This document shows positions 9,263 to 49,374 of a DNA stretch of 64,000 bases, in pieces. The notes beneath the pieces were generated by a model. That model was given only the letters and a program-made list of their open reading frames with translations. It was not told where the DNA came from and searched no databases. The stretch lies in the NCBI GenBank assembly GCA_963728965.1, contig CAVSMH010000010.1, forward strand, positions 212,573-276,572, given 5' to 3'. Position 1 is the first letter of the stretch. The number at the start of each line of letters is the position of its first letter. Position numbers and translations under genes: made by a program. This DNA is from Bryobacterales bacterium. GTDB taxonomy: Bacteria; Acidobacteriota; Terriglobia; Bryobacterales; Bryobacteraceae.

Positions 9263-9292
9263 TTGACATTCGGGTGCGAAATGTGACATATT
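9263..9292 (+). promoter_or_regulatory. Candidate sigma70-type promoter for the second TonB receptor
   Basis: Perfect -35 TTGACA (9263-9268), 18-nt spacer, then CATATT (9287-9292) preceded by TG (9284-9285). It lies about 40 nt upstream of ATG 9331. Confidence 0.35.
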
Positions 9293-9330
9293 TGATCCAC
9301 TTTGCAGTCTCGCACGTCCAAGGTTTTCTT

Positions 9331-27901: not shown

Positions 27902-27919
27902 CTTTCCGTTTGTAGCTTT
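27897..27919 (+). repeat. Direct repeat TGTAGCTTT x2 (14-nt period) upstream of the L,D-transpeptidase gene
   Basis: TGTAGCTTT at 27897-27905 and 27911-27919. A third partial copy TGTATGCCC lies at 27927-27935. The first copy includes the kinase stop codon. Confidence 0.2.
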
Positions 27920-27966
27920 TCGCCCTTGTATGCCCGCGCGCCGCCTGCGGCATCCTGCGTGCGTAT

Positions 27967-29004
27967 ATGCATAACAGCATGCGATGGCACTGGGTAACAT
28001 TTGCACTTTTTCTTTTTGTAACCGGCTTGTGTGCGGAAGGCCACCATGGAGCGAACGCGCTCTCCAGGAAGGGACATGCCAACCGTGTGGTTCAGCCCCA
28101 GCCACCCAGTTACGATCCCGCGGCGATTGCCAATCCAAATCAGCCCGATACCGCGGAGGGCGATCGCGGTTCGGCCGTGCTGCGGATTCAGATTCTGCTG
28201 GGCCGCGCGCATTTTTCATCGGGTGTGCTCGACGGGCAGTTCGGCACCAACCTGAAGAGAACCGTGGCGGCTTACCAGGCGAAGCAGCACATCCCCCACG
28301 ACGGCGTGGTGAATGCCGCAACCTGGGCGGCGTTAAACCGCGATATGGCGCCGCCGCTGGTCAGCTACGCCATTGCGGCGGACGATCTGAAAGGGCCATG
28401 GGTCAACGTTCCGGGCAGCATGGAGGAGCAGGCCAAACTACCCTACCTCGGATATGCATCGCCCCTCGAGGAATTGGCCGAACGGTTCCATGTCAGCGAG
28501 GCAGTCCTCCAGGCACTGAACCCGGGGGCCGATTTCGGCCGCGAGGGCCAGGTGATCCAGGTGCCGAACGTGCTGATCATGCCGCCGGCGCAGGCCAACA
28601 AGGTGGTAGTGAGCCGGTCTGAGTCCTCGATCCGGGTCTATGACGATGTGGGGAAACTCGTCGCGTTTTACGTCTGCACGAGCGGGAGCGAGCACGACCC
28701 GTTGCCCATCGGCGACTGGAAGATTCAGGGCGTGCGCCGCAATCCGGAATTCCACTACAACGCGAAACTGTTTTGGGATGCCAAAGACCCCGACGCGACG
28801 GCGGTGATCAAGCCCGGTCCGAACAATCCGGTAGGCCTGGTATGGATCGATCTTTCCAAGGACCACTACGGAATTCATGGAACGCCGGACCCCTCGAAGA
28901 TCGGGCATGCATCTTCCCACGGGTGCATCCGGCTGACCAACTGGGATGCGTTGGAACTGGCCGCGATCGTGAAGCCGGGGACGCCGGCGATGTTGCGGGA
29001 GTAA
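27967..29004 (+). CDS. L,D-transpeptidase (YkuD fold) with peptidoglycan-binding domain
   Basis: PG_binding_1-like segment [37 protein letters not shown]. YkuD catalytic block [27 protein letters not shown]. Signal peptide present. ATG 27979 is an alternative start. Confidence 0.85.
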
Positions 29005-29016
29005 AGGAGTAAAGCG

Positions 29017-29817
29017 ATGAACGTGCGTGCGAGAATGGCGGCTGCATTCGTGTTGGGCCTGGCGGCAGGAGCGCTACTGTTGACGGTCGGACTTTGGTGG
29101 TCGGGCAGTCTGCGGGTGAACCCGATGGTTTGGCACCGGAATCATCCGGCAACGCCGGCCGTGGACCTGACCGGGACGGTGGCGGAAGCCAAGAACCTGC
29201 CGCCGGCGCCATTGCCCGAGGTGCCCCCGCCCGCAGTTTCCCAGCCCTCCGTACCCGCGGCTCCTGCCCCCAAAGTCGGCCAGCCGACGCCTGCCGTGCC
29301 TCCCCCCGCGGTGCCGCAGCCGGCGCCGCCGCCGCCTGCGGGCGGCAAGACAAATCCAGGAAGCACATCCGCCAATCGCATGGCTCCCGAAGCGCCGCCG
29401 CACCTCGCCTTACCGATCGCGGGCCTCGATCCGTCGAAGATCGCCGATACGTTCGCCGACGCGCGCGACGGCCGCCGCCACGAGGCGCTCGATATCATGT
29501 CGCCGCGCGGCACGCCTTTGAAGGCCGTGGCGGAAGGAAACGTGGTCAAGCTCTTCACCAGCAAACAGGGTGGCCTGACCGTGTACCAGTTCGACGATAG
29601 CCAGACCTACTGCTTCTACTATGCGCACCTCGATCGCTACGCTCCGGGGCTCCAGGAAGGCACGTTGCTGCGGAAAGGCGATGTGTTGGGATACGTGGGA
29701 AGCACCGGCGATGCCTCGCCCGATGCACCGCACCTGCACCTGGCGGTCTTCAAACTGGGGCCGGAAAAGAAATGGTGGCAGGGGACGCCGATCGATCCGC
29801 TGCCGCTCCTGCAATAG
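29017..29817 (+). CDS. M23 (LytM-type) peptidoglycan endopeptidase with Pro-rich linker
   Basis: HEALDIMSPRGTPLKAV... and YYAHLDRY...GYVGSTGDASPDAPHLHLAVF (HxxxD and HxH metal ligands). N-terminal TM anchor and a Pro/Ala-rich spacer. Confidence 0.85.
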   Translation: MNVRARMAAAFVLGLAAGALLLTVGLWWSGSLRVNPMVWHRNHPATPAVDLTGTVAEAKNLPPAPLPEVPPPAVSQPSVPAAPAPKVGQPTPAVPPPAVPQPAPPPPAGGKTNPGSTSANRMAPEAPPHLALPIAGLDPSKIADTFADARDGRRHEALDIMSPRGTPLKAVAEGNVVKLFTSKQGGLTVYQFDDSQTYCFYYAHLDRYAPGLQEGTLLRKGDVLGYVGSTGDASPDAPHLHLAVFKLGPEKKWWQGTPIDPLPLLQ

Positions 29818-34375: not shown

Positions 34376-35209
34376 TCACTTTTGGGCCTGTTGTTGCTGC
34401 TTCCACTGCTCGAAATCGGCTTCGCTCATAACCTGCATGGTGGTGCGCATCTGGAAATGGCCCAGCCCGCACAGTTCCGAGCAGGGGACTTCGTAGATGC
34501 CGATGCGGTCAGCCTGGAACGGGAGGGGAATCTCCATTCCGGGCACGAGGTCCTGTTTCAGGCGCAGTTCGCGAACGAAGAAGTTGTGGATCACATCGCG
34601 CGAATGCAGCAGGAGCTTGATCGGTTTGCCGACCGGGACCTTCAACGATGCGCTGACGATATCGTCTTTGCCGGCGGGATCGTGCTCATCGAGTCCCAGC
34701 GGATTGCCGGCGGAGTCGTTGATGAGCTTGAGATCGGTGCGGCCGAATTTGCCGTCGGGCCCGGGATAGCGGAAGGACCACGCAAACTGTTTGGCGGTGA
34801 CCTCGACGGCGAGGGCGTCCGATGGCGACTGGGCGAAGTGGACGCCGGCCCAGATCCGCGTGCCCATCAGCACCAGGCCGAGAAACAGGATGGCGGTGGC
34901 GGTGGTCCACAACGTTTCGAGCTTATTATTGCCGTGGGAGTAGACCGCGCGGCGACCGTCATCCCGGAACTTGACAATGGCGTATCCAAGCACGAACTGC
35001 GCCAGGACGAAAATGATGCCGACTACGATCAGGGTGCGCATGAACTGCACGTCGTACGCCAATCCATGCTGCGAAATAGCGGGCGGAAACCACCAGGTTC
35101 TCGCGAAAAAAAAGTAAGCCGTGACGATCGTTATCACCCACACCAGCGGGGCAAGCAGCATCCCGAAACTCCTCCACGAGGGCGCAATGCCCTCCCCATG
35201 CGCGACCAC
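34376..35209 (-). CDS. coxB: Cytochrome c oxidase subunit II (CuA, no fused cytochrome c domain)
   Basis: Two N-terminal TM helices. CuA motif HNFFVRELRLKQD...CSELCGLGHFQM. The protein ends shortly after the CuA domain. ATG 35161 is an alternative internal start. Confidence 0.9.
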   Translation of the reverse strand: MVAHGEGIAPSWRSFGMLLAPLVWVITIVTAYFFFARTWWFPPAISQHGLAYDVQFMRTLIVVGIIFVLAQFVLGYAIVKFRDDGRRAVYSHGNNKLETLWTTATAILFLGLVLMGTRIWAGVHFAQSPSDALAVEVTAKQFAWSFRYPGPDGKFGRTDLKLINDSAGNPLGLDEHDPAGKDDIVSASLKVPVGKPIKLLLHSRDVIHNFFVRELRLKQDLVPGMEIPLPFQADRIGIYEVPCSELCGLGHFQMRTTMQVMSEADFEQWKQQQQAQK

Positions 35210-35259
35210 CGGGCTCTCTGAGGCGCCCGGACCGGAGATCGCATTGAAGCGGAGAAGAC

Positions 35260-35267
35260 ATTATCAC
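35260..35267 (-). promoter_or_regulatory. Extended -10 (TGtGATAAT) candidate for the oxidase operon
   Basis: Minus-strand sequence gcTGTGATAATgtc. The hexamer lies at 35265-35260, about 50 nt upstream of the coxB ATG at 35209. Confidence 0.3.
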
Positions 35268-35313
35268 AGCCGGTGAAGGAGGTGCAAGTCGGATTTCAAA
35301 CGGAAGGCAAAGG

Positions 35314-35348
35314 AAAAGGTCCGCCGGCGGCCCTACCGGCGGACTTTT
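35314..35348. terminator. Intrinsic-terminator-like hairpin flanked by A4 and T4 tracts in a divergent intergenic region
   Basis: AAAA (35314-35317), G, stem GTCCGCCGG (35319-35327), 8-nt loop, stem CCGGCGGAC (35336-35344), TTTT (35345-35348). 9 perfect GC-rich base pairs. No annotated gene lies upstream on either strand. Confidence 0.45.
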
Positions 35349-35367
35349 CCGCCGCCCCGCCCGTCGT

Positions 35368-35373
35368 TAGAAT
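35368..35373 (+). promoter_or_regulatory. -10-like box TAGAAT 11 nt upstream of ATG 35385
   Basis: Sequence is cgtcgtTAGAATgagggtatacgATG. Confidence 0.3.
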
Positions 35374-35384
35374 GAGGGTATACG

Positions 35385-36152
35385 ATGCTCCGCATATCCA
35401 TACTGTTGATGTTCGCCGGACTGCTCTGCGCGCAGAACGCCGACAATCCGTTCGACCGGCCGCCCGCCCGGGTGGACAAGGCGCTGCGCAGCCGGATCGC
35501 CGAGTTCTACGAAGATCACGTCAAAGGTGAGTTTCGCAAGGCCGAGGCGCTGGTGGCCAACGACACGAAGGAGTTCTTTTACAGCCACAACAAACCCTCG
35601 TACCTGAGTTTCGAAATCGGCAGGATTCAATATTCGGACGGCTACAAGCGCGCCCGCGCGACGGTGATCTGCGAGCAGTACGTCATGGTGCCCGGATTTG
35701 CCAACAAGCCCATGAAGGTGCCGACGCCCAGCACCTGGAAACTGGTGAAGGGCAAGTGGTACTGGTATGTGGACCAGGAGGCCATGCGGAATACGCCGTT
35801 CGGCAAACTGGTGGGCGGGCCGCCTTCTGCGCAGGGTGGTCCGATTCCGGCCGTAATCCCCGACACCGTGGAGCCGTTTCTGAAGAAGGTGAAAGTGGAT
35901 AAAAAGGCCGTGATCCTGAAGCCCGGTAACTCGGACCAGGTTACCATCTCGAACACGGCGCCGGGTGTGATGAACATCTCGCTGTTCGGCGCCCTGGCGG
36001 GAGTGGAAGCTAAACTGGATCACACCAGCCTGACGGTGGCCGGGAAAGCGGTGCTGACCCTCCGCGCCGCGGCAGGCGCAAGGTCCGGTCTGCTCACGAT
36101 TCGCGTGGAGCAGACCGGGGAAGTCATACCCATCCGGGTAGAGATCCAATAG
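35385..36152 (+). CDS. Secreted hypothetical protein (no recognised domain)
   Basis: Signal peptide MLRISILLMFAGLLCAQ. Coding-like composition. The C-terminal ~90 aa are beta-rich and Ig-like (KPGNSDQVTISNTAPGVMNISL...TIRVEQTGEVIPIRVEIQ). Confidence 0.6.
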   Translation: MLRISILLMFAGLLCAQNADNPFDRPPARVDKALRSRIAEFYEDHVKGEFRKAEALVANDTKEFFYSHNKPSYLSFEIGRIQYSDGYKRARATVICEQYVMVPGFANKPMKVPTPSTWKLVKGKWYWYVDQEAMRNTPFGKLVGGPPSAQGGPIPAVIPDTVEPFLKKVKVDKKAVILKPGNSDQVTISNTAPGVMNISLFGALAGVEAKLDHTSLTVAGKAVLTLRAAAGARSGLLTIRVEQTGEVIPIRVEIQ

Positions 36153-36197
36153 AAAGCGCACGAGCGTTCGGCGCCCGTGCGGGTTGCGGCCGAGCGG

Positions 36198-36701
36198 TTA
36201 GCTGATGCGCTCGTACCAGCCTTTACCCACGGCTCCGCCCACGCATTGATACACGTGGCCGTCCATCGGCGGGGTCTTTTTACCCGACTTGAACCAGGTG
36301 TCCATCGGGCCAACGGCGAACCACACACCAGCTCCGCCGTCCGCGGAATGGCCGATGTCGATCACGCCCTGGGGCAGCGCGGCTTCACGCTCGGCTTGGG
36401 TCTTGCTGCGGTCTTCGGGCAGCGGCGGCACGTCGCACACGGGTTGATCGCCCCGCGTGACGTAGGCCCACCCCTCGGCGTCGACCTTCACCACCAGGCC
36501 GTTGGGCGGTTGCGGCGGATTCGAGGTATCGATCCGGCCGGCGTCCACCGAGATTTTCCAGTTATTGAAGGCCGTCATGTAGATAGTCTTCAAGTCTTCG
36601 TTGCGGAAATCGCACTGCAGCTTCGCGCTCGCCAGTACATTTGCCTGAGCGGCTTCCAACGTAGTCGTCTCAGGGTCGAGTTTTACGGGTATAGTCCCCA
36701 T
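36198..36701 (-). CDS. Hypothetical protein (no signal peptide, no recognised domain)
   Basis: 167-aa ORF with normal amino-acid composition, convergent with the preceding gene. No motif that I can assign. Confidence 0.5.
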   Translation of the reverse strand: MGTIPVKLDPETTTLEAAQANVLASAKLQCDFRNEDLKTIYMTAFNNWKISVDAGRIDTSNPPQPPNGLVVKVDAEGWAYVTRGDQPVCDVPPLPEDRSKTQAEREAALPQGVIDIGHSADGGAGVWFAVGPMDTWFKSGKKTPPMDGHVYQCVGGAVGKGWYERIS

Positions 36702-36871
36702 CCAATCTCCTAGTTCCAGGCTAGAAGACGGTCAGCGGGGTTCCGGTGGCGGAAGGTGGCAAGTGGTTGATTTCTTGGACAAAACTATTTTGCTGGGGGC
36801 GTGAATGCCTCATTGGGGGTCCCCCACAACGGAGGATGAAACGAAATCCGCGCCGGATATCGAGGTTGCCG

Positions 36872-36893
36872 CCACAGAGTCTGCACCACAGAG
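36872..36893 (+). repeat. Direct repeat CCACAGAG x2 (14-nt period) upstream of the FHA operon
   Basis: CCACAGAG at 36872-36879 and 36886-36893, about 45-65 nt upstream of the TAGAAT box at 36936. Confidence 0.2.
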
Positions 36894-36935
36894 AGCGACG
36901 AATTGACTGAACCGGCGGGGAAGACCGTACGTTGT

Positions 36936-36941
36936 TAGAAT
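36936..36941 (+). promoter_or_regulatory. -10-like box (TGtTAGAAT, extended) immediately upstream of the FHA operon
   Basis: Sequence is gtTGTTAGAATcgtATGaggctccttATG. ATG 36945 is 3 nt downstream and ATG 36957 is 15 nt downstream. Confidence 0.3.
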
Positions 36942-36944
36942 CGT

Positions 36945-37856
36945 ATGAGGCTCCTTATGGACCGGCCTGCCACGACCCAAGCTGCTACCGCCCGCGACAT
37001 TATTATGGAGATCCTTCGGAATATGCGGGAAGGGCTGGAGCCCCTTCATTACTCCGTGCTGCCCCCTTCCATCTTCGACGTTTACCTGTATCCGGATGAT
37101 TTGGAACGGCTGCGCGGCATTCTGCCGCGGATTCTGGATGAGGCCCGGCGGGCGCTTGATGCGGAACTGGAGAAGCTCAATCGGGCTTCGCTGCGGGAGC
37201 GGTTGAAAATCGCGCGTCGCGGGGAGCCGAAGATCGCCGCGCCGGAGGGCGGGTGGCGGATCCGGCTCCTCGAGAATACCGACGACGATGCCGAGCCGGG
37301 CGACATCACGATTCATTCGGAACTGGCGCTGCCGGCCAAGCCCGAGTTCGGCGCCGGGTCCATGACTAAGCGGATCGCGACGCGGCGCAATGTGGGCGGC
37401 GGGCGCACCACCTATCAGCCCCAACCTGCCGCGGCGGCAGCCACGACGGCCGCGGCTCCTGCGCCCGCCGAGCGCCCGCCGGAGATCGAGGCCGGTTGCC
37501 TGGCCGTGATCGAGTACGACGATCACGGCGTGCGGAAGACGTTCCAGATGACCAAAGAACAGATCGTAGTAGGGCGCGGCGGGCGCGACTACTGGACCGA
37601 TCTCAAGCTCGACACCGTGCCGGATGTTTCGCGCGAGCACTTCCGCCTGCGGCGCGACGCGGAAACCGGCAAGTTCTTCCTGAAGGACCTGAGCCGGCTG
37701 GGCACCACCATCAACGGGGAGAAAGCGCCTTCGAGCATCGAAATCGTGGACGGGGAGAAGCGGGACCGGAACGTGGAGGCGCCGGTGCCCGACGAGGCGC
37801 GGATCGGGCTCGCGGACGTGCTCTACCTCCATTTCCGAAGCGCATCGCATGGTTAA
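36945..37856 (+). CDS. FHA-domain protein (N-terminal FhaA-like region, Ala/Pro linker, C-terminal FHA)
   Basis: FHA signature IVVGRGG...VSREHFRLRRDAETGKFFLKDLSRLGTTINGEK. N-terminal ...LPPSIFDVYLYPDDLERL... ATG 36957 is an alternative start. Confidence 0.8.
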   Translation: MRLLMDRPATTQAATARDIIMEILRNMREGLEPLHYSVLPPSIFDVYLYPDDLERLRGILPRILDEARRALDAELEKLNRASLRERLKIARRGEPKIAAPEGGWRIRLLENTDDDAEPGDITIHSELALPAKPEFGAGSMTKRIATRRNVGGGRTTYQPQPAAAAATTAAAPAPAERPPEIEAGCLAVIEYDDHGVRKTFQMTKEQIVVGRGGRDYWTDLKLDTVPDVSREHFRLRRDAETGKFFLKDLSRLGTTINGEKAPSSIEIVDGEKRDRNVEAPVPDEARIGLADVLYLHFRSASHG

Positions 37857-39366
37857 AGCCAGACTGAAGTGTGCGGGTGATACCCACCCCGGCCGGGTGC
37901 GGACCAACAACGAAGATGCGTTCCACCTGGACGTGGACCGCGGCATCTTTTTCGTGGTGGACGGCATCGGCGGGCAGGCGGCGGGGGAGAAAGCCGCCGC
38001 CATCGCGGTGGAGCGGCTCCGCGCTCGCCTGGAGCGGCTGACTGGCACGGCGGAGCAGCGCATCCGCGAGGGCATCACGGTGGCAAACAATGAGATTCTG
38101 CGCGCAGCCCGCAGCCATCCGGAATGGGAGGGCATGGCCTGCGTGCTCACCGTGGCGGTGCTGGAGAACGGCTCGGCGGTGGTGGGCCACGTGGGCGATT
38201 CGCGCCTGTATCAGGTGCGCGCCGGCGGAATCCGCAAGATCACGCACGACCATTCGCCGGTGGGCGAGCGCGAGGACAACCGCGAGCTGAGCGAGGCCGA
38301 GGCCATGCGGCACCCGCGGCGTAACGAGGTTTTCCGCGACGTCGGATCGGAGGAGCACACTCCCGACGATCGCGACTGGATCGAGATCCGGCGGCTTGCG
38401 TTCGACGCCGACACCGCCCTCCTGTTGTGCAGCGACGGGCTGAGCGACCAGGTGCCTTCGGGCGAGATTCGCCGGCTGGTGGAACAGAACGCCGGTAACC
38501 CGGAGGCGGCGGTGCGCGACCTGATCGATGCCGCCAACCGTGCCGGCGGCAAGGACAACGTTACGGTGGTGCTGATGGAAGGCGAGCAGTTCCAGGCGCC
38601 GGCCCGCGTCGTCGCGGCACCGCCAACTCGCACGGGTGGCCGCTGGTGGTTTCTGGCAGCCGGACTGCTCTTGGGCTTGGCGGCGATGTTCGGAGCACTG
38701 AAGTGGCTCGGGTGGCGGGTCCCTCCCCCGCCGGTGGCGCCCCCGCAGGTAGTCCTGGTCGGTACGGGACAGGCGTTCACGCGGATCGGCGACGCGCTGG
38801 CGCAGGCGCGCGCGGGCGACGTCGTGGAAGTGCTCGCCGGCGACTACCACGAGCAGGTGCGGCTCAAAGAAGGCGTCACCGTACGCAGCCGCGTGCCGCG
38901 GGAAGCCGTGCTGCTGGCAGTGCCGCTGAGCGACGGCCCGGTGGTGGTGGCCGACTCGGTTAAAGACGGGCGCATCGCGGGCTTTCTGATTCGCGCCGAC
39001 CAGCAGGCCCCGATGGCGGCCGGAATCGTGCTCACCGGTTCGGATGTGGTGGTGGAGGACATGGAAGTGAAAGGCGCCGCCAAGGGAATCGTAATTCACG
39101 GTGGAACTCCGGTGCTGTTGGGGAATTCCATCCTCGACGGCACCGGCGAAGGCATCGTGGTGAGCGCTTCGAACGCCTGGGTTCTGCATAACTCGATTCG
39201 CAGGAACAAAGGCGCCGGGCTGGCGGCGCGCGACGGTGCCCAGCCAGTGGTGGCCGAGAACGTCTTCGAGAGAAACACAGTGGAACTGCCGAACGAAATG
39301 CTCAATGCGGTGAAGGCGCTCAACGTGTTCGTGGGAATGCCCAGGGTGGGGCCAGCCAGAAAATGA
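37849..39366 (+). CDS. PP2C-family Ser/Thr phosphatase with TM helix and extracytoplasmic right-handed beta-helix domain
   Basis: PP2C blocks NEDAF, VVDGIGGQAAGE, VGDSRLY, LLCSDGL and GGKDNVTVV. TM helix RWWFLAAGLLLGLAAMFGALKWLGW. The C-terminal ~220 aa have PbH1-like repeats (GIVLTGSDVVVEDMEV.GAAKGIVIHGGTPVLLGNSILDGTGEGIVVSASNAWVLHNSI..N). 8-nt overlap with the upstream gene. Confidence 0.85.
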   Translation: MVKARLKCAGDTHPGRVRTNNEDAFHLDVDRGIFFVVDGIGGQAAGEKAAAIAVERLRARLERLTGTAEQRIREGITVANNEILRAARSHPEWEGMACVLTVAVLENGSAVVGHVGDSRLYQVRAGGIRKITHDHSPVGEREDNRELSEAEAMRHPRRNEVFRDVGSEEHTPDDRDWIEIRRLAFDADTALLLCSDGLSDQVPSGEIRRLVEQNAGNPEAAVRDLIDAANRAGGKDNVTVVLMEGEQFQAPARVVAAPPTRTGGRWWFLAAGLLLGLAAMFGALKWLGWRVPPPPVAPPQVVLVGTGQAFTRIGDALAQARAGDVVEVLAGDYHEQVRLKEGVTVRSRVPREAVLLAVPLSDGPVVVADSVKDGRIAGFLIRADQQAPMAAGIVLTGSDVVVEDMEVKGAAKGIVIHGGTPVLLGNSILDGTGEGIVVSASNAWVLHNSIRRNKGAGLAARDGAQPVVAENVFERNTVELPNEMLNAVKALNVFVGMPRVGPARK

Positions 39367-41312
39367 TAGCGCCGGCGAGCCGGAAGATCGGAAAGTACGG
39401 CATCCTGCGCAAGCTGGGCCGCGGCGGGATGGCGGACGTGTACCTGGCCCAGGATAGCGAGTGCCACTGCACGGTGGCGCTGAAACTGATCGAGCACGCA
39501 CCCGACCCCGATACGCAGGATGCGATCGAGGCCGAACGGCGCGGCGCCACGCTGCAAGCCCGGCTGGCCGAGACCGAGCGGCACGTCGTGCGGATTTTCG
39601 ATTCGAGCGACGCCGACGGGTTCTTCTACGTGGCCATGGAGTACGTGGAAGGCCAGGACCTCTCCGAACTGCTGCGGCGCGGTCCGCTGCCGGCGGAGTT
39701 CGCCGTGGATGCGGCCCGGGCGGTGGCGCAGACCCTCGACAGCGCCCACCATCTCCAGGTGATCATCGATGGCAAGGAGTTCCACGGCATCGTTCACGGC
39801 GATATCAAGCCGAAGAACATCCGCATCGACACCACCGGAGAGGTGCGCGTACTGGATTTCGGGATCGCCAAGGCGCTGTCGCTTTCCCGGCGACTGACCC
39901 GCAACGAGTTCGGCAGCGTGCCCTACGGCTCCCCGGAACGGCTGGAACTCGGCGAAGTGAACGTGCTTTCCGACCTGTGGTCGCTGGCGGTGATGCTGTA
40001 CGAAATGCTGACCGGCGCGCAGCCCTACCAGGCGGAGAACACGGAGCGGCTCGAACGCCTCATCCGCTCGCGCGTGGCACCGCCGGCGCTGCCGGATTCG
40101 TGTCCGGAGACGCTGCGGCGCATCCTCCGGAAAGCGATGGCGCCGGAGCCGGAGTTGCGGTACCAGTCGGCGCGGGAGTTCGACGAAGACCTGGCTGCCT
40201 TTCGCGAGGGCGGAACGGTGCGGGCGCTGGTGGAGGATCTGGAGGCCACGCGCCGGACGGGGCGCCGCGACCTGGACGAGACACGCCGCACGCAGACCGG
40301 GACACTCGCCGCGGCCGACGATGAGACGCGGCGGACCGCCACCAACGGCCGGGCGTCCCTTCATTTCGGAAAATGGCCGCCCAAGCGGCGCCGTCTGCTG
40401 CGCCGGAAGATCCTGTCCGTCGCGTCCCTGGTAGTGGGATTGTGGATGGCGTGGCTGCTGATTTCGAGCGTGCTGCTCTACAAGCGCGGGCAGGCGCTGA
40501 CCCGCGAGATTGCCGCCGAGCAGGTGACCGACCCCAACCAGGTGTGGGCGCGATGGACCGAACTGGCGGGAAATAATCCTTCCTCTCCGTGGCTCAGCGC
40601 GCCCCGCAAGGCAGTGAAGCAGAAACTGGCGGGCGCCGCGGACCGGGTGATCGAGAGTTACCGCAACGGCGACGTGGTATATGAGACCCAGTGGAAGAGC
40701 GCCCGCGACCTGCTGGCCCACACCCTGGTGCTCGATCCGGACAACGAAGTGCGCGCGAAGCTGCGCGTGTGCGAGGGGCACCTGGCGCGAATCAGCGGCT
40801 CGAGCCACCGCTCGGCGTCCGAATATAACGATGCCGTGTCCAAGTTCAACGAAGCCCACCAACTGATGCCGCAATCGCCCGACCCGCTGCTGGGACTGGC
40901 GCGGGTTTACGTCTACGGCCTGAAAGACATCGATAAGGGCTACCAGGCGCTGGAGCAGGTGGAAAAGCGTGGGTTTCAACTGGGCAATCGCGAGAAGAGC
41001 CTGCTCGCCGACGGGTATCGTGAGCGGGCCGACCGGCTCTTCTGGGACTCCCGCACGGTGCGCGGGATGCCGCAGGAGAAGGACGAGATCGAGCGCGCCA
41101 GAGACGACTACGAGCGGTCGCTCAAGCTGTACCAGAGTGTGGCGCCGTGGGGCAACGCCTATGCCAGCATCGGGCGCGTGGAACAGAGCCTGGAGAGCGT
41201 CAATTCGCGATTGCAGCAGATCGAGCACGGAAACGGCCCCCTGGGCGTGCTGGAGAAGGCCAAGAAGATTCCCTCCTGGCTCAAGCCCCTGATCGATCGG
41301 ATCACCAGGTGA
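39363..41312 (+). CDS. Ser/Thr protein kinase (non-RD, HGD catalytic loop) with TM helix and helical/TPR-like ectodomain
   Basis: Kinase motifs LGRGGMADVY, VALKLI, HGDIKPKNIRID, DFGIAK and GSPERL. TM helix ILSVASLVVGLWMAWLLISSVLL. All-helical C-terminus. ATGA overlap with the phosphatase gene. Confidence 0.85.
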   Translation: MIAPASRKIGKYGILRKLGRGGMADVYLAQDSECHCTVALKLIEHAPDPDTQDAIEAERRGATLQARLAETERHVVRIFDSSDADGFFYVAMEYVEGQDLSELLRRGPLPAEFAVDAARAVAQTLDSAHHLQVIIDGKEFHGIVHGDIKPKNIRIDTTGEVRVLDFGIAKALSLSRRLTRNEFGSVPYGSPERLELGEVNVLSDLWSLAVMLYEMLTGAQPYQAENTERLERLIRSRVAPPALPDSCPETLRRILRKAMAPEPELRYQSAREFDEDLAAFREGGTVRALVEDLEATRRTGRRDLDETRRTQTGTLAAADDETRRTATNGRASLHFGKWPPKRRRLLRRKILSVASLVVGLWMAWLLISSVLLYKRGQALTREIAAEQVTDPNQVWARWTELAGNNPSSPWLSAPRKAVKQKLAGAADRVIESYRNGDVVYETQWKSARDLLAHTLVLDPDNEVRAKLRVCEGHLARISGSSHRSASEYNDAVSKFNEAHQLMPQSPDPLLGLARVYVYGLKDIDKGYQALEQVEKRGFQLGNREKSLLADGYRERADRLFWDSRTVRGMPQEKDEIERARDDYERSLKLYQSVAPWGNAYASIGRVEQSLESVNSRLQQIEHGNGPLGVLEKAKKIPSWLKPLIDRITR

Positions 41313-41412
41313 GGATTCTGGTGCCGGCTTCCGATTGCTGGAGCGGGACTCTACCCGCTCTTTGGCGAAACCATGGGACCGTACCGCGGCGGCAACACGG
41401 CGGGTCGAGGAT

Positions 41413-44400
41413 ATGGCGGTAACACGTAGCAGGGCGGCCGAACGGGCCGAAGTGCGGCGGGTGCCCGGAGGCCGCCTCTTGTGGCGGCGGCACGAGCTTG
41501 GGGGCATGGTGGCCGCGTGTCTGCTGGTCGCGGTCGGGCTCATTCTGGTCTACCGCTCCAAAGCCGACGCGCTCAACGATAACCCGCAGTTGGTGAACCT
41601 GAACGCGCTGACCGCGCGCGAGGAACTGTTGCCGGCGCTGGGCTCGATTCAGGACCCGCGGGAACGGCTGGAGACGGCGCGCAAAATCTACTACCTTTCG
41701 GGCTCGCTTCCGAATGTGGGCGGAATCCGGCACCTGCTCAGCGGCGAGCAGTTTCGCGAGTTGAAGCCGACATTCGTGGTGCGGCGGCCGGCGCAGTTCC
41801 GCCGGGCATTCTGGCTCTGGGTGACGCTGTTCTTCGCAGCGTTCCTGGCAGTGCACGTCTGGTGGAGCCTGCGGCGGTTCGAGGGCGACCCGCTGCTGCT
41901 GCCGGCGGTACTGGCCCTCAGCGGGATCGGGCTGATCCTGATGATCAGCCTGCGCGATCCACTCCGCGACAACCTGCTGTTCGTGGAGTTCGCGCAGGGC
42001 GCCGTTCTGGGCGCGATTCTGCTGGCCGGGCTGAGCGCCCTGGACTACCAGAAACTGCTGGGGAAGCTCACTTTCGTTCCGCTGCTGGCCAGCTTTGCCC
42101 TTTCGGTCCTGCTGATCTTGTTCGGCCATGGACCGGGCACGAGCGACGCCAAAGTGAACCTGCTCGGGTTCCAGCCGGTGGAGATCATCCGCCTGCTGCT
42201 GATTCTTTTCCTGGCGGGTTTTTTTGCCAGCCGGTGGGACGTGCTGCGCCACGCGCGGGAAACGCGGCCCTCGCTGGCGCGGCTGACGCGCCGCTTCGAT
42301 ATTCCGCCGGTGGAGTACACCGCGCCGGTGGTGGTGTCGGTGGCGTTGTCGCTCGTCTTCTTCTTCCTGCAACGCGACATGGGCCCGGCGCTGGTCTTCG
42401 CGAGCCTGTTCCTGGTGCTGTACGCGGTGGCGCGGGGCAGCGTCCTGGTGCCCGCGGTGGGCCTGGGGCTGGTGGCCGCGGGGTTCGGATTCGGTTATCT
42501 CATCGGCGTGCCGCACACCGTGGCCAGCCGCATGGCCATGTGGCTCTCGCCATGGAACAACGTGGTGCACGGCGGCGATCAACTGGCGCATTCGCTGTGG
42601 GCGTTTGCGACGGGCGGCCTCACGGGCATGGGAATCGGCAGGGGCGATCCCGGGCTGGTCCCGGCGGCGCACACCGACCTCATCCTCTCTGCACTGGGTG
42701 AGGAGTGGGGATTCCTGGGTGTGGCGGCGGTGCTCGCGCTCTATGCCTTCCTGGTGTACCGTTCGCTGCGCATCGCCACCCGGTCGCGGTCGGATTACGA
42801 ATTCTTCCTGGGTACCGGGCTGGCGGCGGCGACGGCTTTGCAGGTTCTGTTGATCTCGGCCGGCGCGTTGGGCGTGATGCCGCTGTCGGGCGTGGTCACG
42901 CCGTTCCTGAGCTACGGGCGCACGTCCATGCTGGCGAACTTCGCCATGATTGCGATGGTGGCGGCGATTTCCTCGCGCGCCGGCAAACCGGTCGCGGAGC
43001 GGCTGCCCCCTCTGCGCGCCGGAACGCGCACGCTCGCCGCGGTGTTCGCCGTGTGCGGAGCTGTGGTGCTAGCCAAGGCGGCTTACGTGCAAGTGCTGCG
43101 CAGCGCGACGGTTATGGGGCAAGGCACTCTGGTGGTGCAGGCCGACGGGGCTCGGCGCTATCAGTACAACCCCCGATTCCAGGACGTGATGCGCGAGATT
43201 CCGAAAGGCTCGATTTACGACCGCAACGGTCTGCCTCTGGCCACCAGCAACTGGGACGAACTGGAAAAGCACCGGGCGGAATACAAGCAGCTCGGCATCG
43301 ATATCGACCGCGCGTGCTCCAGGACGGACACCCGCCACTATCCGCTGGGCGGGCTGCTTTTCGACATGCTGGGCGATTTGCGGACGCGCATGCGGTGGGG
43401 TGCGTCGAACACTTCCTTCGTGGAGCGCGACTCGGCACGGCGCCTGCGCGGCTACGACGACCGGCCGGAACTGGTGCAGGTGAAGGATCCGCGCAGCGGC
43501 CGGATGGACACCGTGATCCGCTACGACTACCGCGAGCTGGTGCCCTTGTTGCGGCATCGCCGCGACCCGCAGAATCCGGCCGTGCGCCGCATCCTGGACC
43601 GGCCGCGCGACGTGAAGATGTCGGTCGATGCGCGGCTCGAAGTCAAGCTGGGAGAGATTCTGCGGAACCAGTTGCGGCAGGCGGGCAAGGACAAGGGGGC
43701 CGCGGTGGTGATGGATGCAGCGACGGGAGACCTGCTCGCGGCAGTGAGCCTGCCGGTGCCGCCCGATCGCCCCGAAGCCGCGGCGCCGGCGCCCGATGCG
43801 GCGAATCCGTTCCTGGACCGGGCGCGGTACGGGCTCTATCCGCCCGGCTCGACCTTCAAAGTGGTGACCGCCATGGCAGCGCTGCGAAAGGACGCGGGCC
43901 TGGTGCACCGCACCTACGAGTGCATCCGCCTGCCCGACGGGCGTGTGGGCAACTACATCAAAGGCTCGAGCCGGCCCATCCGCGACGATATTCAGGACAC
44001 CTCGCCGCACGGGACGGTCGACATGGCCCGCGGCATCACGGTTTCGTGCAACGCGTACTTCGCCCAGTTAGGGACGTACGATGTGGGGGCGCAGGCGCTG
44101 TTCGACACGGCGAAGCTGCTGGGCATTACGGTGGCCGCCCCGGATACGGCCGCGCAGCTTCATAAATCCCTGCCGCAATCGGCCTACGGGCAGGGGCAGG
44201 TCGTAGCGTCGCCATTCCAGATGGCGCGCGTGGCGGCCACTGTCGCGGCGGGCGGCATGATGCCGCAAGGCCGGTGGATTACCGACGAGAACAACGTACG
44301 CACCAACGAACCCGCCCCGGTGCTGCCCCCCGAGGCGGCGCAGACGCTGGCCCGGTTCATGCGCGCGGTGGTGACCTCGGGCACGGGGCGGCGCGCCGCG

Positions 44401-44619
44401 GCGTCCGATGTGGCCGTTGCCGGCAAGACCGGTACGGCGGAGCTGGCCGACGCGCCTTCCCACGCCTGGTTCATCGGCTTTGCGCCCTACGGGGGCACGG
44501 GGCGCAAGCTCGCCGTCTCGGTGCTGGTGGAAAATGGAATCTACGGCGGTACGGCGGCGGCGCCCGCGGCGGCCGAGATCATGAGCGCCGCGGCGAAGCT
44601 GGGGTTGATGAAACCATGA
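41413..44619 (+). CDS. Fused SEDS glycosyltransferase (RodA/FtsW family) and class B penicillin-binding protein (transpeptidase)
   Basis: Single uninterrupted frame. SEDS blocks DPLLLPAVLALSGIGLILMISL, LGFQPVEIIRLLLILFLAGFF, HTDLILSALGEEWGFLG and GVMPLSGVVTPFLSYGRTSM. Then an extra TM helix TRTLAAVFAVCGAVVLAKAAY. Then a bPBP with SxxK (PPGSTFKV), SxN (TVSCNAYF) and KTG (AGKTGTAE). The start is uncertain (ATG 41413 vs TTG 41335). Confidence 0.85.
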   Translation: MAVTRSRAAERAEVRRVPGGRLLWRRHELGGMVAACLLVAVGLILVYRSKADALNDNPQLVNLNALTAREELLPALGSIQDPRERLETARKIYYLSGSLPNVGGIRHLLSGEQFRELKPTFVVRRPAQFRRAFWLWVTLFFAAFLAVHVWWSLRRFEGDPLLLPAVLALSGIGLILMISLRDPLRDNLLFVEFAQGAVLGAILLAGLSALDYQKLLGKLTFVPLLASFALSVLLILFGHGPGTSDAKVNLLGFQPVEIIRLLLILFLAGFFASRWDVLRHARETRPSLARLTRRFDIPPVEYTAPVVVSVALSLVFFFLQRDMGPALVFASLFLVLYAVARGSVLVPAVGLGLVAAGFGFGYLIGVPHTVASRMAMWLSPWNNVVHGGDQLAHSLWAFATGGLTGMGIGRGDPGLVPAAHTDLILSALGEEWGFLGVAAVLALYAFLVYRSLRIATRSRSDYEFFLGTGLAAATALQVLLISAGALGVMPLSGVVTPFLSYGRTSMLANFAMIAMVAAISSRAGKPVAERLPPLRAGTRTLAAVFAVCGAVVLAKAAYVQVLRSATVMGQGTLVVQADGARRYQYNPRFQDVMREIPKGSIYDRNGLPLATSNWDELEKHRAEYKQLGIDIDRACSRTDTRHYPLGGLLFDMLGDLRTRMRWGASNTSFVERDSARRLRGYDDRPELVQVKDPRSGRMDTVIRYDYRELVPLLRHRRDPQNPAVRRILDRPRDVKMSVDARLEVKLGEILRNQLRQAGKDKGAAVVMDAATGDLLAAVSLPVPPDRPEAAAPAPDAANPFLDRARYGLYPPGSTFKVVTAMAALRKDAGLVHRTYECIRLPDGRVGNYIKGSSRPIRDDIQDTSPHGTVDMARGITVSCNAYFAQLGTYDVGAQALFDTAKLLGITVAAPDTAAQLHKSLPQSAYGQGQVVASPFQMARVAATVAAGGMMPQGRWITDENNVRTNEPAPVLPPEAAQTLARFMRAVVTSGTGRRAAASDVAVAGKTGTAELADAPSHAWFIGFAPYGGTGRKLAVSVLVENGIYGGTAAAPAAAEIMSAAAKLGLMKP

Positions 44620-45428
44620 GCGTGTTTTCCGAAATTGAGAAGACCATCGAACGCGGCTTCCGTCGATGGACCGAGCGCGTCTTCGGAGCCGTCGAGTCCG
44701 ACGAGCTGTTGTTGGTGCATCGCGCGGTTCTGGAGGCGATCGAAAGCAAAGTTCAGACCGTGGCGCGCGGCAAGCGCCTGTTTCCTTACTCGCGGCTCGT
44801 GGTGACGATGGTGTCGCCCGATGCCGACCGCCGCGCGGTCTACCAGGCCGCGTTCGCCGACGGCGGGCGTCTGGAGAGCGAAGTTCGCGAAATGCTGGAA
44901 GGCACTGGCTGTGAGCTCACGCGCGGGTTGACGCTCGAAGTGCGGACCGCCGGGAACGGGGACAAGCCGTTCCTCATCGAGTATGAGGTGGGCTCCGTGG
45001 CGCCCGCGCCGCCGGCGCCGGCCGCCGCTCCCGTGAACCTGGCTGCGCCCGCGATCGTAACCGGCGTGGCGCGGCTGGTGGTCGTGCGGGGCAAAGCCGC
45101 CAGCGAGGATTACCGGCTCGACAAGGCGCGCACCAATATCGGGCGGATGGTGGAATTGACCGACGCCGAGGGGCACGTCGTGCGCCGCAACGACCTGGTG
45201 TTCGAGGAAGGCGGCGACGACGCCAACGGAACCGTATCGCGCCGCCATGCGCACATCCGGCTCGAGGCCGGCGAATACCGCATCTGCGACGACGAGAGCG
45301 AGTTCGGCACGCGCGTTTTCCGCGACGGCCGACCCATTGAAGTCCCCCCGGGAAACCGGCGCGGGGAGCGCCTCCGCTCCGGCGACGAGATTTACCTCGG
45401 CCGGGCCTGCGTCCGGTTCGAGCGCTAG
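44616..45428 (+). CDS. FhaA-like protein (DUF3662-type N-terminal domain + FHA domain)
   Basis: MSVFSEIEKTIERGFRRWTERVFG... has the DUF3662-like start. FHA block NIGRMVEL...VSRRHAHIRLEAGEYRICDDESEFGTRVFRDGRPI. ATGA overlap with the SEDS-PBP stop. Confidence 0.85.
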   Translation: MSVFSEIEKTIERGFRRWTERVFGAVESDELLLVHRAVLEAIESKVQTVARGKRLFPYSRLVVTMVSPDADRRAVYQAAFADGGRLESEVREMLEGTGCELTRGLTLEVRTAGNGDKPFLIEYEVGSVAPAPPAPAAAPVNLAAPAIVTGVARLVVVRGKAASEDYRLDKARTNIGRMVELTDAEGHVVRRNDLVFEEGGDDANGTVSRRHAHIRLEAGEYRICDDESEFGTRVFRDGRPIEVPPGNRRGERLRSGDEIYLGRACVRFER

Positions 45429-45464
45429 TGGGTGGCCGCGGCGCCGCCGCACTACCATAGAAGG

Positions 45465-46130
45465 ATGCCGGCTTTTCTGTTCGACCTCGACGGCACCCTG
45501 GTGGACAGCGTTTACCAGCACGTGCTCGCGTGGAGAGACGCGCTGGAGGAAGCGGGGCTGCCCCTGGCGGTGTGGCGCATCCATCGCAAAATCGGGATGA
45601 GCGGCGGCCTCTTCGTGAACGCGCTGGCCCGCGAAACCGGTCGCCCCATGGACGCCGAAGACACGGCGCGCATGCAGACGCTCCACGCGGAGGCGTTCCG
45701 GCGCTATTCGGCGCAGGTCCGGCCGCTGCCGGGCGCGCGCGAACTGCTGGCGTACCTGGCCAAATCGGGCGTGCCGCATGCCGTTGCCACCAGCGGCTAC
45801 CAGGAAAGCGCGGGCCGCTCGTTGCGGACGCTCGGCATCGGCCCCGACGTGCCGGTGGTCACCCGCGACCAGGTGGAACATGCCAAGCCGGACCCCGACC
45901 TCTTTCTGGCCGCGGCCCAGCGGTTGGGCGTGTCCATTGAAGATTCCGTTGTGGTCGGCGACAGCATCTGGGACCTGCTGGCGGCGCGCCGCGCGCGCGC
46001 GCTTGGCGTGGGACTGCTCTCCGGCGGCTACGGCTCCGAGGAGCTGGAGCGCGCGGGCGCGTATCGCGTCTACGAGGACCCGGCGGACCTGTTGGCCCAC
46101 TTGGACGAGCTGGGCGTCAGGGTGGGCTGA
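45465..46130 (+). CDS. HAD-IA family hydrolase (phosphatase-like)
   Basis: MPAFLFDLDGTLVDS (DxDGT motif I), VATSG (motif II), HAKPDPD and VVGDSIWDLLAA (motifs III/IV). Confidence 0.8.
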   Translation: MPAFLFDLDGTLVDSVYQHVLAWRDALEEAGLPLAVWRIHRKIGMSGGLFVNALARETGRPMDAEDTARMQTLHAEAFRRYSAQVRPLPGARELLAYLAKSGVPHAVATSGYQESAGRSLRTLGIGPDVPVVTRDQVEHAKPDPDLFLAAAQRLGVSIEDSVVVGDSIWDLLAARRARALGVGLLSGGYGSEELERAGAYRVYEDPADLLAHLDELGVRVG

Positions 46131-47344
46131 ATCAAGATCCACGAGATGCCCGCCATCAGGTAGAGCGCCGAGAGGATGTGCAGCGGCGCGTTCCAGTTGC
46201 CGTAACGATCGACAATCTGCGCGAGCACGATGGGGCTGAGGATCCCGCCCACCTGGCCCGCGGTATTCATTACCGCGCTCAGCACCGCCGCGTTTCTGCC
46301 GCCAAGATCGATGGCGGTGGCCCAGCTTGGCGCGAGCGTGAACATGGATAGCGCTCCGGCCGCCGCGATCAGCACTCCCGCCAGCCGCGGATTGGACGAT
46401 ACCGTGCCCCCCAGCATGATCAGCGATCCCAGGAAGTAAGCCACGGCGCCCACCGCCGAACGGCCGATGCGCACGCCGAATCGCCGCGACAGCGCGTCGG
46501 TGGTCATCCCACCCGTGATATCGGCCACCACGCTGAGCAGCAGGGGCAGGCCCGAAAAGATCGCCAGTTCCGCCGACGCCAGGCCGCGCGCCTTTGCCAG
46601 GTAAGTGGGCAGCCACGTGATGAAGAAGTAGAACCCGTAGGTGTTGGCGAAGTACTGCGCGCAGAGCGGCAGCAGGCTCGGCGTGCCAAACACCTGGCCC
46701 CAACTGCCGTGCGCGTGCGCCGGAGGCATGCCCCGCTCCCTTTCGATGAGGTCGCGCTCGGCGGCGGTCACGGCGGGATGATCGCGCGGCTCGTCGCGAA
46801 ACCAGCGATACCAGAACCAGGCCCATGCCAGCCCTATCGAACCGAGCCCCACAAAAACCAGGCGCCACGGCATCAGCGTGGCGATCCACGCCACCAGGCC
46901 GGGCGTGAGCCCGCCCGCCAGGTGCGCCCCCGCGAAGAAGATGCCCTGCACCCGTCCGCGCTCGCGCTCCGGAATCCACCGCGAGAAGACCCGTGCCGCG
47001 TTGGGCCACGCGCCGGCTTCGCCCGTGCCGAACAGGAAGCGCACCGCCAGCAGACCCGGGTAGCTGAACGCCGCCCCGGTGAGCATGGTGAACGCCGACC
47101 ACCAGACCACGATGCGCGTCAGCACGCGGCGGCTGCCGACGCGGTCGGCCCACCACGCAGTGGGGATTTCAAACAGCGCGTAGGCCAAGGTGAAGGCGCT
47201 GAACACGTACCCCATCTCGATGCGCGTCAGGTGGAGATCGCGCATGATGGAGGGCGCGAGAATCGAGATGCAGACCCGATCGAGATAAGTGACGCCGGCC
47301 AGGGCGACCGTGAAGCCGACTACGTAGTAGCGGACGGAGTGCAC
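46070..47344 (-). CDS. MFS transporter (anion:cation symporter-like)
   Basis: 12-TM pattern. ...[30 protein letters not shown]... is the MFS loop 2-3 signature. Its 3' end overlaps the convergent HAD gene by 61 nt. Confidence 0.8.
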
Positions 47345-47379
47345 GTGTTTCGAGTTTACCGGAACCGCCGCCGCGGGCT

Positions 47380-47385
47380 GATAAT
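47380..47385 (+). promoter_or_regulatory. -10-like box GATAAT 9 nt upstream of the uvrB ATG
   Basis: Sequence is gggctGATAATctgagaactATG. Confidence 0.3.
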
Positions 47386-47394
47386 CTGAGAACT

Positions 47395-49374
<1,980 letters not shown>

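Follow-up and report, generated by a model that had tools for sequence, protein, structure and literature searches.

In a window of 64,000 nucleotides (nt) from a Bryobacterales bacterium (assembly GCA_963728965.1, contig CAVSMH010000010.1, positions 212,573 to 276,572 of the forward strand), five genes at 36945-45428 on the plus strand form a cluster that, judged by its domain content, is a Gram-negative, rearranged relative of the actinobacterial cell-wall signalling locus. The window means this whole stretch, and all coordinates are its own. The genes, here called g1 to g5, encode in this order an FhaA-like protein with a forkhead-associated (FHA) domain, a membrane PP2C phosphatase, a membrane Hanks Ser/Thr kinase, a fusion of a SEDS polymerase with a class B penicillin-binding protein (bPBP), and a second FHA protein. 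All are long intact open reading frames (ORFs), placed as in an earlier reading made from the letters alone (the sequence-only reading), and the Pfam and NCBIfam domain content agrees with the five products named there. The same order recurs in about 28 other species-level acidobacterial genomes. Since the flanks there are unrelated, the grouping is, on this comparison, far beyond chance. We consider it rather probable that the operon specifies a one-polypeptide peptidoglycan synthase together with its own reversible Thr-phosphorylation module, and that this synthase is probably accessory.

The genes and their junctions, the latter read directly from the sequence, are as follows.

36945-37856, plus strand: g1, FhaA-like protein, 303 amino acids (aa); FhaA_N-like domain ~36993-37364, FHA ~37491-37844
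37849-37856, plus strand: g1/g2 overlap of 8 nt, ATGGTTAA, g1 stop over g2 start
37849-39366, plus strand: g2, membrane PP2C, 505 aa; catalytic domain ~37864-38583, transmembrane (TM) helix 38644-38700, predicted periplasmic right-handed beta-helix 38701-39363
39363-39366, plus strand: g2/g3 overlap ATGA, g2 stop over g3 start
39363-41312, plus strand: g3, membrane Hanks Ser/Thr kinase, 649 aa; kinase domain ~39390-40217, linker 40218-40409, TM helix 40410-40466, TPR-like periplasmic domain 40467-41309
41313-41412, plus strand: g3-g4 gap of 100 nt, from the g3 stop at 41310-41312 to the g4 ATG at 41413
41413-44619, plus strand: g4, SEDS::bPBP fusion, 1068 aa; SEDS ~41887-42972, PBP anchor 43033-43089, linker or pedestal-like region 43090-43689, transpeptidase ~43690-44592
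44616-44619, plus strand: g4/g5 overlap ATGA, g4 stop over g5 start
44616-45428, plus strand: g5, second FHA protein, 270 aa; N-domain 44616-44993, FHA ~45060-45425

The sequence-only reading described five genes chained by overlaps. The three overlaps that it gave are exact, but the chain is interrupted by the gap between g3 and g4, the sole junction of the cluster without an overlap. ATGA-type overlaps are frequent in the acidobacterial loci, and several relatives have a 4-nt overlap at g3/g4 as well; one of them (L003) overlaps at g2/g3, g3/g4 and g4/g5. Such 4-nt overlaps are an ordinary operon junction in high-GC genomes, so that translational coupling is compatible with them and is not proved by them. 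The overlapping stops and starts and the conserved order together point to a five-gene operon. No Rfam family was found in 35000-47000, and the gap itself holds neither an Rfam family nor a terminator-like site. A promoter and terminator scan of 35000-48000 gave counts within the shuffled expectation and nothing at the cluster borders. The window has a GC content of about 65%, and its composition does not change at the cluster. A 3-kb internal repeat, suggested by an off-diagonal blastn match of 74%, was rejected as a composition artefact because the repeat search found no repeat.

The five proteins and their candidate phosphorylation sites

The motifs that bear on the proposed phospho-control are listed here together with the additional membrane helices of g4.

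37365-37388, plus strand: g1 interdomain linker motif TKRIATRR, aa 141-148, directly after the N-domain; candidate phospho-acceptor
39795-39818, plus strand: g3 catalytic loop HGDIKPKN, a non-RD variant with Gly for the Arg of HRD
40248-40337, plus strand: three (D/E)(A/E)TRRT repeats in the g3 juxtamembrane linker, with TRRT at aa 296-299, 307-310 and 322-325
41413-41430, plus strand: g4 N-terminal cytoplasmic tail MAVTRS, with Thr4 as candidate phospho-acceptor and FHA-binding site
41497-41553 and 41806-41862, plus strand: two extra N-terminal TM helices of g4 by hydropathy, on either side of a helical loop in the periplasm (~85 aa)

The claim that FHA genes bracket the operon is borne out by FHA domains in both g1 (Pfam E 3.7e-9) and g5 (7.6e-7). 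The sequence-only reading further named the last gene as the DUF3662 plus FHA, FhaA-like one. This is right only in a remote sense, since the clear FhaA homologue is g1. In the window copy of g1, FhaA_N (DUF3662, PF12401) is the only Pfam match to the N-terminal part and lies below threshold (E 0.07), and among g1 orthologues it is matched in 21 of 23 (best 1.5e-7), with the FHA domain in all 23. The N-domain profile of the g1 family also aligns with actinobacterial FhaA N-domains (hhalign 97.3%, E 2e-11), a comparison that is not fully independent because the actinobacterial set was gathered with a g1-seeded profile; the Pfam result is independent. For g5, Pfam FhaA_N is matched in none of 22 orthologues. 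The AlphaFold2 (AF2) model of its N-domain is confident (pLDDT ~90), and the sole non-FHA match in Foldseek is 2LC0, the N-terminal domain of Rv0020c/FhaA (E 8e-3, TM-score 0.54, root-mean-square deviation 3.8 Å). Against the actinobacterial FhaA_N set, hhalign gives 95%. The modelled g5 N-domain is thus best described as a remote FhaA_N-like fold, much more divergent than that of g1. When the N-domain profiles of g1 and g5 were compared directly, the match was not significant (0.4%), and their full-length alignment covers the FHA domains only. A common FhaA_N ancestry of the two N-domains is suggested because each matches the actinobacterial set and because of the fold match to 2LC0.

Both FHA domains keep phosphothreonine-binding motifs, namely GRGG (aa 210-213) and SREH (aa 229-232) in g1, and IGRM (aa 175-178, with GR) and SRRH (aa 208-211, the SxxH motif) in g5. 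The gene for FhaB/FipA, a small FHA-only protein, is absent between g1 and g2, and NF049868 reaches 17-19 bits (cut-off 125). On a 99.4%-identical contig (L001), gene calling sets the start of g1 at 36957. The g1 linker motif is conserved in orthologues of the cluster form called type A below, as (M/K)T(K/H/R)RI(A/S)T(R/T)R. Since its position is analogous to that of T116 in Mycobacterium tuberculosis FhaA, the linker may likewise be phosphorylated.

The phosphatase g2 has the architecture of PstP, with a PP2C domain, a single TM helix (aa 266-284) and a predicted extracytoplasmic domain of 221 aa, which appears to be a beta-helix. Its Pfam matches are PP2C_2 (1.5e-16), Beta_helix (4.1e-9) and NosD (8.4e-6), and the NCBIfam model Stp1_PP2C_phos gives 194.7 bits, under its cut-off of 230. 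Matches in the Protein Data Bank (PDB) are tPphA, PppA, Stp1 and PstP, with the PstP structures at 1e-23. The metal-binding motifs DGIGG, GDSR, SDGL and KDN are all present.

The kinase g3 is the single kinase gene of the cluster and, as the sequence-only reading had it, lacks PASTA repeats: Pfam finds Pkinase (2.8e-38) and weak TPR_19/TPR_2, and no PASTA match. The PASTA kinase model NF033483 (Stk1/PknB family) stays at 228 bits, with its cut-off at 450, and its match stops before the ectodomain. A linker of about 65 aa leads to the TM helix (aa 350-368) and then to a predicted ectodomain of 281 aa. Thus, the large ectodomain is not a property of the phosphatase in place of the kinase, as had been supposed; both proteins carry one, and that of g3 is the longer. 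Its profile is matched in 29 of 29 acidobacterial loci. The best PDB matches of g3 are S. aureus Stk1, StkP, PknE, PknB and PknA. The catalytic loop reads HGD in 25 of the 27 cluster kinases scored from acidobacterial loci, with one HAD and one without a pattern match, and HRD in the actinobacterial kinases scored, except for two with HLD and two without a match. Non-RD kinases are generally independent of activation-loop phosphorylation. In the juxtamembrane linker, two to three TRRT copies are kept in type-A orthologues (41-72% identity; Bryobacterales, Thermoanaerobaculia, Vicinamibacterales), and the rest of the linker varies. These repeats are candidate autophosphorylation sites and candidate docking sites for FHA domains. 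We also considered g3 as an orthologue of PknA or PknB. This was rejected, since its identity to the actinobacterial cluster kinases (30-39%) is the same as that to an unrelated kinase in the window (35%).

The fusion g4 is one ORF without a frameshift that contains both FTSW_RODA_SPOVE (PF01098, 1.4e-51) and Transpeptidase (PF00905, 1.1e-40), in agreement with the claim that polymerase and transpeptidase are a single polypeptide. By hydropathy it consists of the extra TM pair, the SEDS core, a cytoplasmic linker, a PBP anchor that is retained (aa 541-559) and a periplasmic PBP portion. Across 29 diverse aligned fusions including g4, with identities down to 31%, the Asp of the SEDS HTD motif (D422) and the transpeptidase residues S813/K816 (SxxK), S878/N880 (SxN) and K1005/G1007 (KTG) are invariant, so both enzymes are probably active. 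The scores against the canonical NCBIfam equivalogs for RodA, FtsW and MrdA lie well below their cut-offs (TIGR02210, 134.7 vs 336.7; TIGR02614, 173.7 vs 337.5; TIGR03423, 157.5 vs 455), so that by this measure g4 is none of the three. The best PDB match of the transpeptidase domain is M. tuberculosis PbpA (3UN7/3LO7). Even at E<=10, residues 517-778 match no Pfam family, including PBPA_dimer (PF21922), the domain typical of PbpA that takes the place of the pedestal there, and the N-terminal 160 aa match nothing meaningful. The region between membrane anchor and transpeptidase matches clostridial PBPs (L034, L082) and not the actinobacterial ones.

The g4 tail is conserved at its very start. 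No close homologue among 47 differs at M1, T4 or S6, and a strict pattern M-x-(V/I/T)-(T/S)-(R/K/Y) finds the start in 22 of 27 acidobacterial loci, from both subfamilies of the cluster. MAVT(R/K)S opens the tail in both, and the remainder varies. The gene caller on the 99.4%-identical contig places the start of this protein 31 residues further in; since MAVTRS is conserved in the 47 homologues and across the phylum, ATG 41413 is most likely the start. From this conservation, Thr4 may be a phosphorylation site.

The g3 linker, the g4 tail and the g1 linker thus share threonines with basic residues, set in cytoplasmic segments that otherwise vary. We suggest that these motifs are targets of the kinase and docking sites for the FHA domains.

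Conservation and relation to known systems

Homologues of the fusion are abundant. More than 3000 are detectable, and the best 120 are all full-length fusions with at least 69% identity; the organisms named among them are Bryobacteraceae, Solibacter and Sulfopaludibacter, which supports the acidobacterial host suspected from the letters. Among representatives of 50%-identity clusters, more than 100 proteins of 1000-1400 aa have the g4 architecture, down to 33% identity, and such fusions also occur in Armatimonadota and in Emticicia (Bacteroidota).

A synteny scan, called for in the sequence-only reading, was made with one genome per species. It gave 80 loci of about 20 kb each, annotated with profiles from the window's own domains. 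All reasonably complete loci of Acidobacteriota keep the order g1-g2-g3-g4-g5 (Bryobacterales, Thermoanaerobaculia, Vicinamibacterales, Terriglobia and 'Acidobacteriaceae'). When the fusions were placed in a rough neighbour-joining tree, made without support values, two forms separated. Type A occurs phylum-wide, includes the window, and has the TRRT repeats and the beta-helix of the PP2C. Type B, a derived branch inside Terriglobia, has no TRRT repeats and often no PP2C ectodomain. Its kinases retain one N-(A/P)-T-(V/I)-E motif in the juxtamembrane linker. One Bryobacterales metagenome-assembled genome (MAG; CAWFPJ01) holds two paralogous five-gene clusters, one of type A (L018, 70% identity to g4) and one of type B (L025, 46%).

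In three long-read MAGs (L025, L028 and L047), the cluster is broken into many short ORFs. Likewise, uvrB lies in five gene calls at 15990-17877 of L001, and the uvrB of the window is one intact ORF of 659 aa at 47395-49374. Since L001 is 99.4% identical to the window and has a split uvrB where the window copy is intact, the split clusters are more likely to reflect assembly indels than pseudogenes.

Beyond the phylum, related clusters were found in Desulfobulbus, Coriobacteriia and other Actinomycetota. The Desulfobulbus MAG (L026, 8692-16736) encodes a fusion with the extra N-terminal TM pair, then a double-FHA protein, a PP2C and an HRD kinase; the rearranged module is thus also found in Desulfobacterota. 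Loci of Actinomycetota, which rank after those of Acidobacteriota in the scan, have the canonical FhaA-FhaB-PstP-RodA-PbpA-kinase(s), with SEDS and transpeptidase fused in Coriobacteriia and one other actinomycetotal lineage (L033, L035, L044). Two actinomycetotal loci give hints of kinase::FhaA_N fusions from their ORF layout: in L036 the best FhaA_N-like match covers residues 397-538 within a long ORF, and in L069 this match and a kinase domain are in one ORF upstream of the FHA gene. In L045 and L080 the FhaA_N-like profile also scores high, but in an ordinary FhaA-type gene. Loci of Clostridia have FHA-SEDS-PBP without a kinase.

The textbook locus to which the cluster is compared is the actinobacterial fhaA-fhaB-pstP-rodA-pbpA-pknA-pknB operon (M. 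tuberculosis Rv0020c-Rv0014c; PMC11898655). There, PknB phosphorylates FhaA at T116, PstP reverses this, and FhaA stabilises PbpA (bioRxiv 10.1101/2022.02.28.482390). The sequence-only reading took the parts list of the cluster to match this locus, and homology of the parts is upheld by the FhaA_N matches of the g1 family in Pfam and hhalign, by PbpA as the nearest solved structure of the transpeptidase, and by the PstP/Stp1 and PknB/StkP-type matches of phosphatase and kinase. Both loci begin with an FhaA-type gene (FhaA_N plus FHA) and encode a membrane PP2C with an ectodomain, a membrane Hanks kinase, and a SEDS protein followed by a PbpA-like transpeptidase. In FhaA as in g1, a threonine site follows directly on the N-domain, T116 in the former and a candidate in the latter. 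The differences are also clear. The host of the cluster is a diderm. Instead of PknA and PknB, which are of HRD type, lie downstream of pbpA and have PASTA repeats on PknB, there is one HGD kinase with a TPR-like ectodomain, upstream of the synthase. FhaB is missing, and a second two-domain FHA protein stands at the 3' end. The SEDS protein and the bPBP are joined in a single chain that has two additional TM helices at its N-terminus, PBPA_dimer is not detected in g4, and the g2 ectodomain is a predicted beta-helix. With FhaB, the PknA/PknB pair and PASTA repeats missing, PBPA_dimer undetected and the genes in another order, the cluster is not a strict member of the actinobacterial locus.

A 2025 survey in Microlife describes 117 SEDS-bPBP chimeras, some of them flanked by genes for a Ser/Thr kinase and a phosphatase, for example in Senegalimassilia faecalis (931 aa) and in the Gram-negative Pedobacter ginsengisoli (1341 aa) (PMC12516126). 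These chimeras, called bifunctional class B synthases, share with g4 the order PF01098 then PF00905 in one protein and the kinase and phosphatase neighbours. The acidobacterial family is absent from that main text, and FHA genes and phospho-site motifs are not discussed there. Moreover, g4 has a single SEDS domain, unlike the two described for Pedobacter, and no PBPA_dimer, which is described for Senegalimassilia. In the literature searched, which did not take in the supplementary tables of PMC12516126, we found no account of the acidobacterial family, of the fixed five-gene order with two FhaA_N-type FHA proteins, of the non-RD TRRT kinase, of the beta-helix phosphatase or of the Thr4 tail.

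Three other systems are instructive. The PASTA kinase/PP2C pairs of Firmicutes (StkP/PhpP, PrkC/PrpC and Stk1/Stp1) likewise couple cell-wall synthesis to a Hanks kinase and a PP2C, and their catalytic domains are the best or near-best matches of g3 and g2. However, their phosphatases are soluble and their loci lack SEDS-PBP and FhaA-like genes, whereas the cluster lacks PASTA. In the type VI secretion system (T6SS) of Pseudomonas aeruginosa, an envelope machine is turned on and off by PpkA-PppA-Fha1, of which PpkA is a Hanks kinase in the membrane that senses the periplasm through a domain of its own, PppA is a PP2C and Fha1 is an FHA adaptor. The logic of the switch in a Gram-negative host is common to both, and PppA is among the top PP2C structure matches of g2. 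In contrast, there are no T6SS genes at the cluster, TagH/VI_FHA scores far below cut-off, and the machine is a predicted peptidoglycan synthase. Finally, clostridial triads (L034, L082) combine an FHA gene, directly upstream, with SEDS and bPBP genes as the cluster does, but have no adjacent kinase or phosphatase and no FhaA_N, and their SEDS and bPBP are unfused.

A proposed phospho-switch and its alternatives

The sequence-only reading saw in the cluster a self-contained, phospho-regulated machine for peptidoglycan synthesis. The conserved threonine motifs strengthen this proposal, and we infer the following cycle. The TPR-like periplasmic domain of g3 would read an envelope cue. The kinase would then phosphorylate its own ETRRT repeats, Thr4 in the MAVTRS tail of g4 and the g1 linker TKRIATRR, and the FHA domains of g1 and g5 would dock on those phosphothreonines. 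In this way, the FhaA_N-type domains of g1 and g5 could act on the stability, the location or the gating of the synthase, as mycobacterial FhaA acts on PbpA and MurJ. The membrane PP2C g2 would reset the switch, and its periplasmic beta-helix may bind glycan. In its fullest form, the proposal is that of a minimal phospho-switch in a diderm, where a non-RD kinase marks Thr4 and TRRT, two FhaA_N adaptors turn on or place an extra synthase, TPR-like and glycan-binding beta-helix sensors set the balance, and the module is old, common to Terrabacteria and Gracilicutes and not peculiar to Actinobacteria. As a whole, this fuller picture is, in our judgement, rather unlikely.

Several points weigh against a self-sufficient, phospho-regulated accessory synthase. 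In mycobacteria, the main targets of FhaA and PknB, MurJ and CwlM, lie outside the operon, so that g4 itself may not be what the signalling proteins act on. Actinobacteria have no RodA-type synthase other than the homologous pair. The kinase may have been recruited independently of PknA and PknB, as its sequence shows no sign of orthology to either. The canonical Asn of the FHA NG motif is replaced by Leu in g1 (SRLGT) and by Phe in g5 (SEFGT), and the residue at this position varies among g5 orthologues; because the Asn is replaced in both, the peptide preference of these putative phosphothreonine readers may be unusual. The 100-nt gap could hold an internal promoter upstream of g4. The AF2 model of the whole fusion has a mean pLDDT of 57, with the PBP half below 50 and moderate confidence in the membrane part only, and since the PBP half is of such low confidence we draw no conclusion from it on the pedestal or PBPA_dimer.

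The role of the synthase itself can be read in two ways. It could be the housekeeping enzyme of elongation, i.e., the only RodA-PBP2 of the cell, with the kinase, phosphatase and FHA genes tuning normal growth. The actinobacterial parallel speaks for this, as do the intact active sites of both halves of g4; in addition, the phylum-wide presence of the cluster and a fusion tree that roughly tracks taxonomy suggest vertical inheritance of a core function. Nonetheless, we judge it improbable. The scores of g4 are far under the RodA, FtsW and MrdA cut-offs, the cluster has no mre or dcw genes as neighbours in the loci inspected, the window and L002 among them, one MAG has a second paralogous cluster, and chimeras coexist with canonical pairs in other phyla according to PMC12516126. 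Taken together, these four points suggest that the fusion is most likely an additional, condition-controlled synthase beside the canonical elongasome and divisome, and not a housekeeping RodA-PBP2.

A different doubt concerns the link between the synthase and the signalling genes. The synthase may be a mere neighbour, with g4 unphosphorylated and the kinase, phosphatase and FHA proteins acting mainly on targets elsewhere, such as the lipid II flippase, precursor synthesis or division proteins. The M. tuberculosis partners of FhaA encoded outside the operon would fit this, as would the many Hanks kinases of Acidobacteria, including another in the window at 24878-27901. But the extreme N-terminus of g4, with its invariant threonine in a basic context like that of the g3 TRRT repeats, is kept in both subfamilies, and the five genes remain together as their flanks change. 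We therefore hold this explanation to be rather unlikely, though a serious one. It is hardly credible that the cluster was recently acquired by horizontal transfer or is a relic in decay without a current role. FhaA_N is otherwise typically actinobacterial and the cluster lies in many short ORFs in L025, L028 and L047, but these fragmented copies are in long-read MAGs, where indel errors are common, and in L001 uvrB is split as well. Furthermore, the GC content of the cluster is like that of the surrounding DNA, the five ORFs of the window are intact with their catalytic motifs kept, and the cluster occurs in several acidobacterial classes.

Neighbouring genes and meaning of the cluster

The DNA upstream of the cluster holds genes for cytochrome oxidase, on the opposite strand, and two ORFs without a family. 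The latter, at 35385-36152 (plus strand) and 36198-36701 (minus strand), lie directly upstream; they are called as genes on the near-identical contig, have no Pfam family and are not beside the cluster in L002. The downstream side encodes a HAD hydrolase, UvrB (uvrB) and, on the opposite strand, an MFS transporter. The HAD-family hydrolase (45465-46130, plus strand) starts 36 nt after g5, behind a GAAGGA motif, and may be co-transcribed with the cluster in this genome. As a sixth gene of the cluster it was rejected because L002 has a different gene, for a TPR/TonB_C protein, at that position. Since flanking genes differ between loci, what is conserved is the set of five genes, to which the HAD gene does not belong.

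About 9 kb upstream of the cluster, a second Hanks kinase of 1007 aa is encoded at 24878-27901 (plus strand), with an HRD-type kinase domain at aa 186-431. Behind it on the plus strand are an L,D-transpeptidase (YkuD plus PG_binding_1; 27967-29004) and an M23 peptidase (29017-29817), so that the region 24878-29817 is another case of a kinase beside peptidoglycan-remodelling genes. Elsewhere, the window encodes a BlaR1-type M56 peptidase with DUF3738 (18883-20703, minus strand) and a serine beta-lactamase-family protein (3034-4242, plus strand). The latter lies between large TonB-dependent-like outer-membrane barrels (51-3032 and 9274-12948), with a GH9 enzyme and an M28 peptidase also nearby.

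We conclude that the finding is real and that the general interpretation given to it by the sequence-only reading is right; the cluster is kin of known systems and not a new kind of system. The Ser/Thr phospho-control of SEDS-bPBP synthases is unclear even in mycobacteria, where many kinases, one phosphatase, several FHA proteins and many targets are involved. Here, the two enzymes form a single polypeptide whose gene is grouped with those for one kinase, one phosphatase and two putative readers, a set simple enough to reconstitute. The conserved threonine motifs provide precise candidate sites, i.e., Thr4 of g4, the TRRT repeats of g3 and the linker of g1, and thus directly testable predictions. 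In addition, natural SEDS-bPBP fusions are relevant as models for structural work and as drug-target models. Finally, that an 'actinobacterial' FhaA/PstP/RodA/PbpA module is present throughout a Gram-negative soil phylum is relevant to the question of where this module arose.

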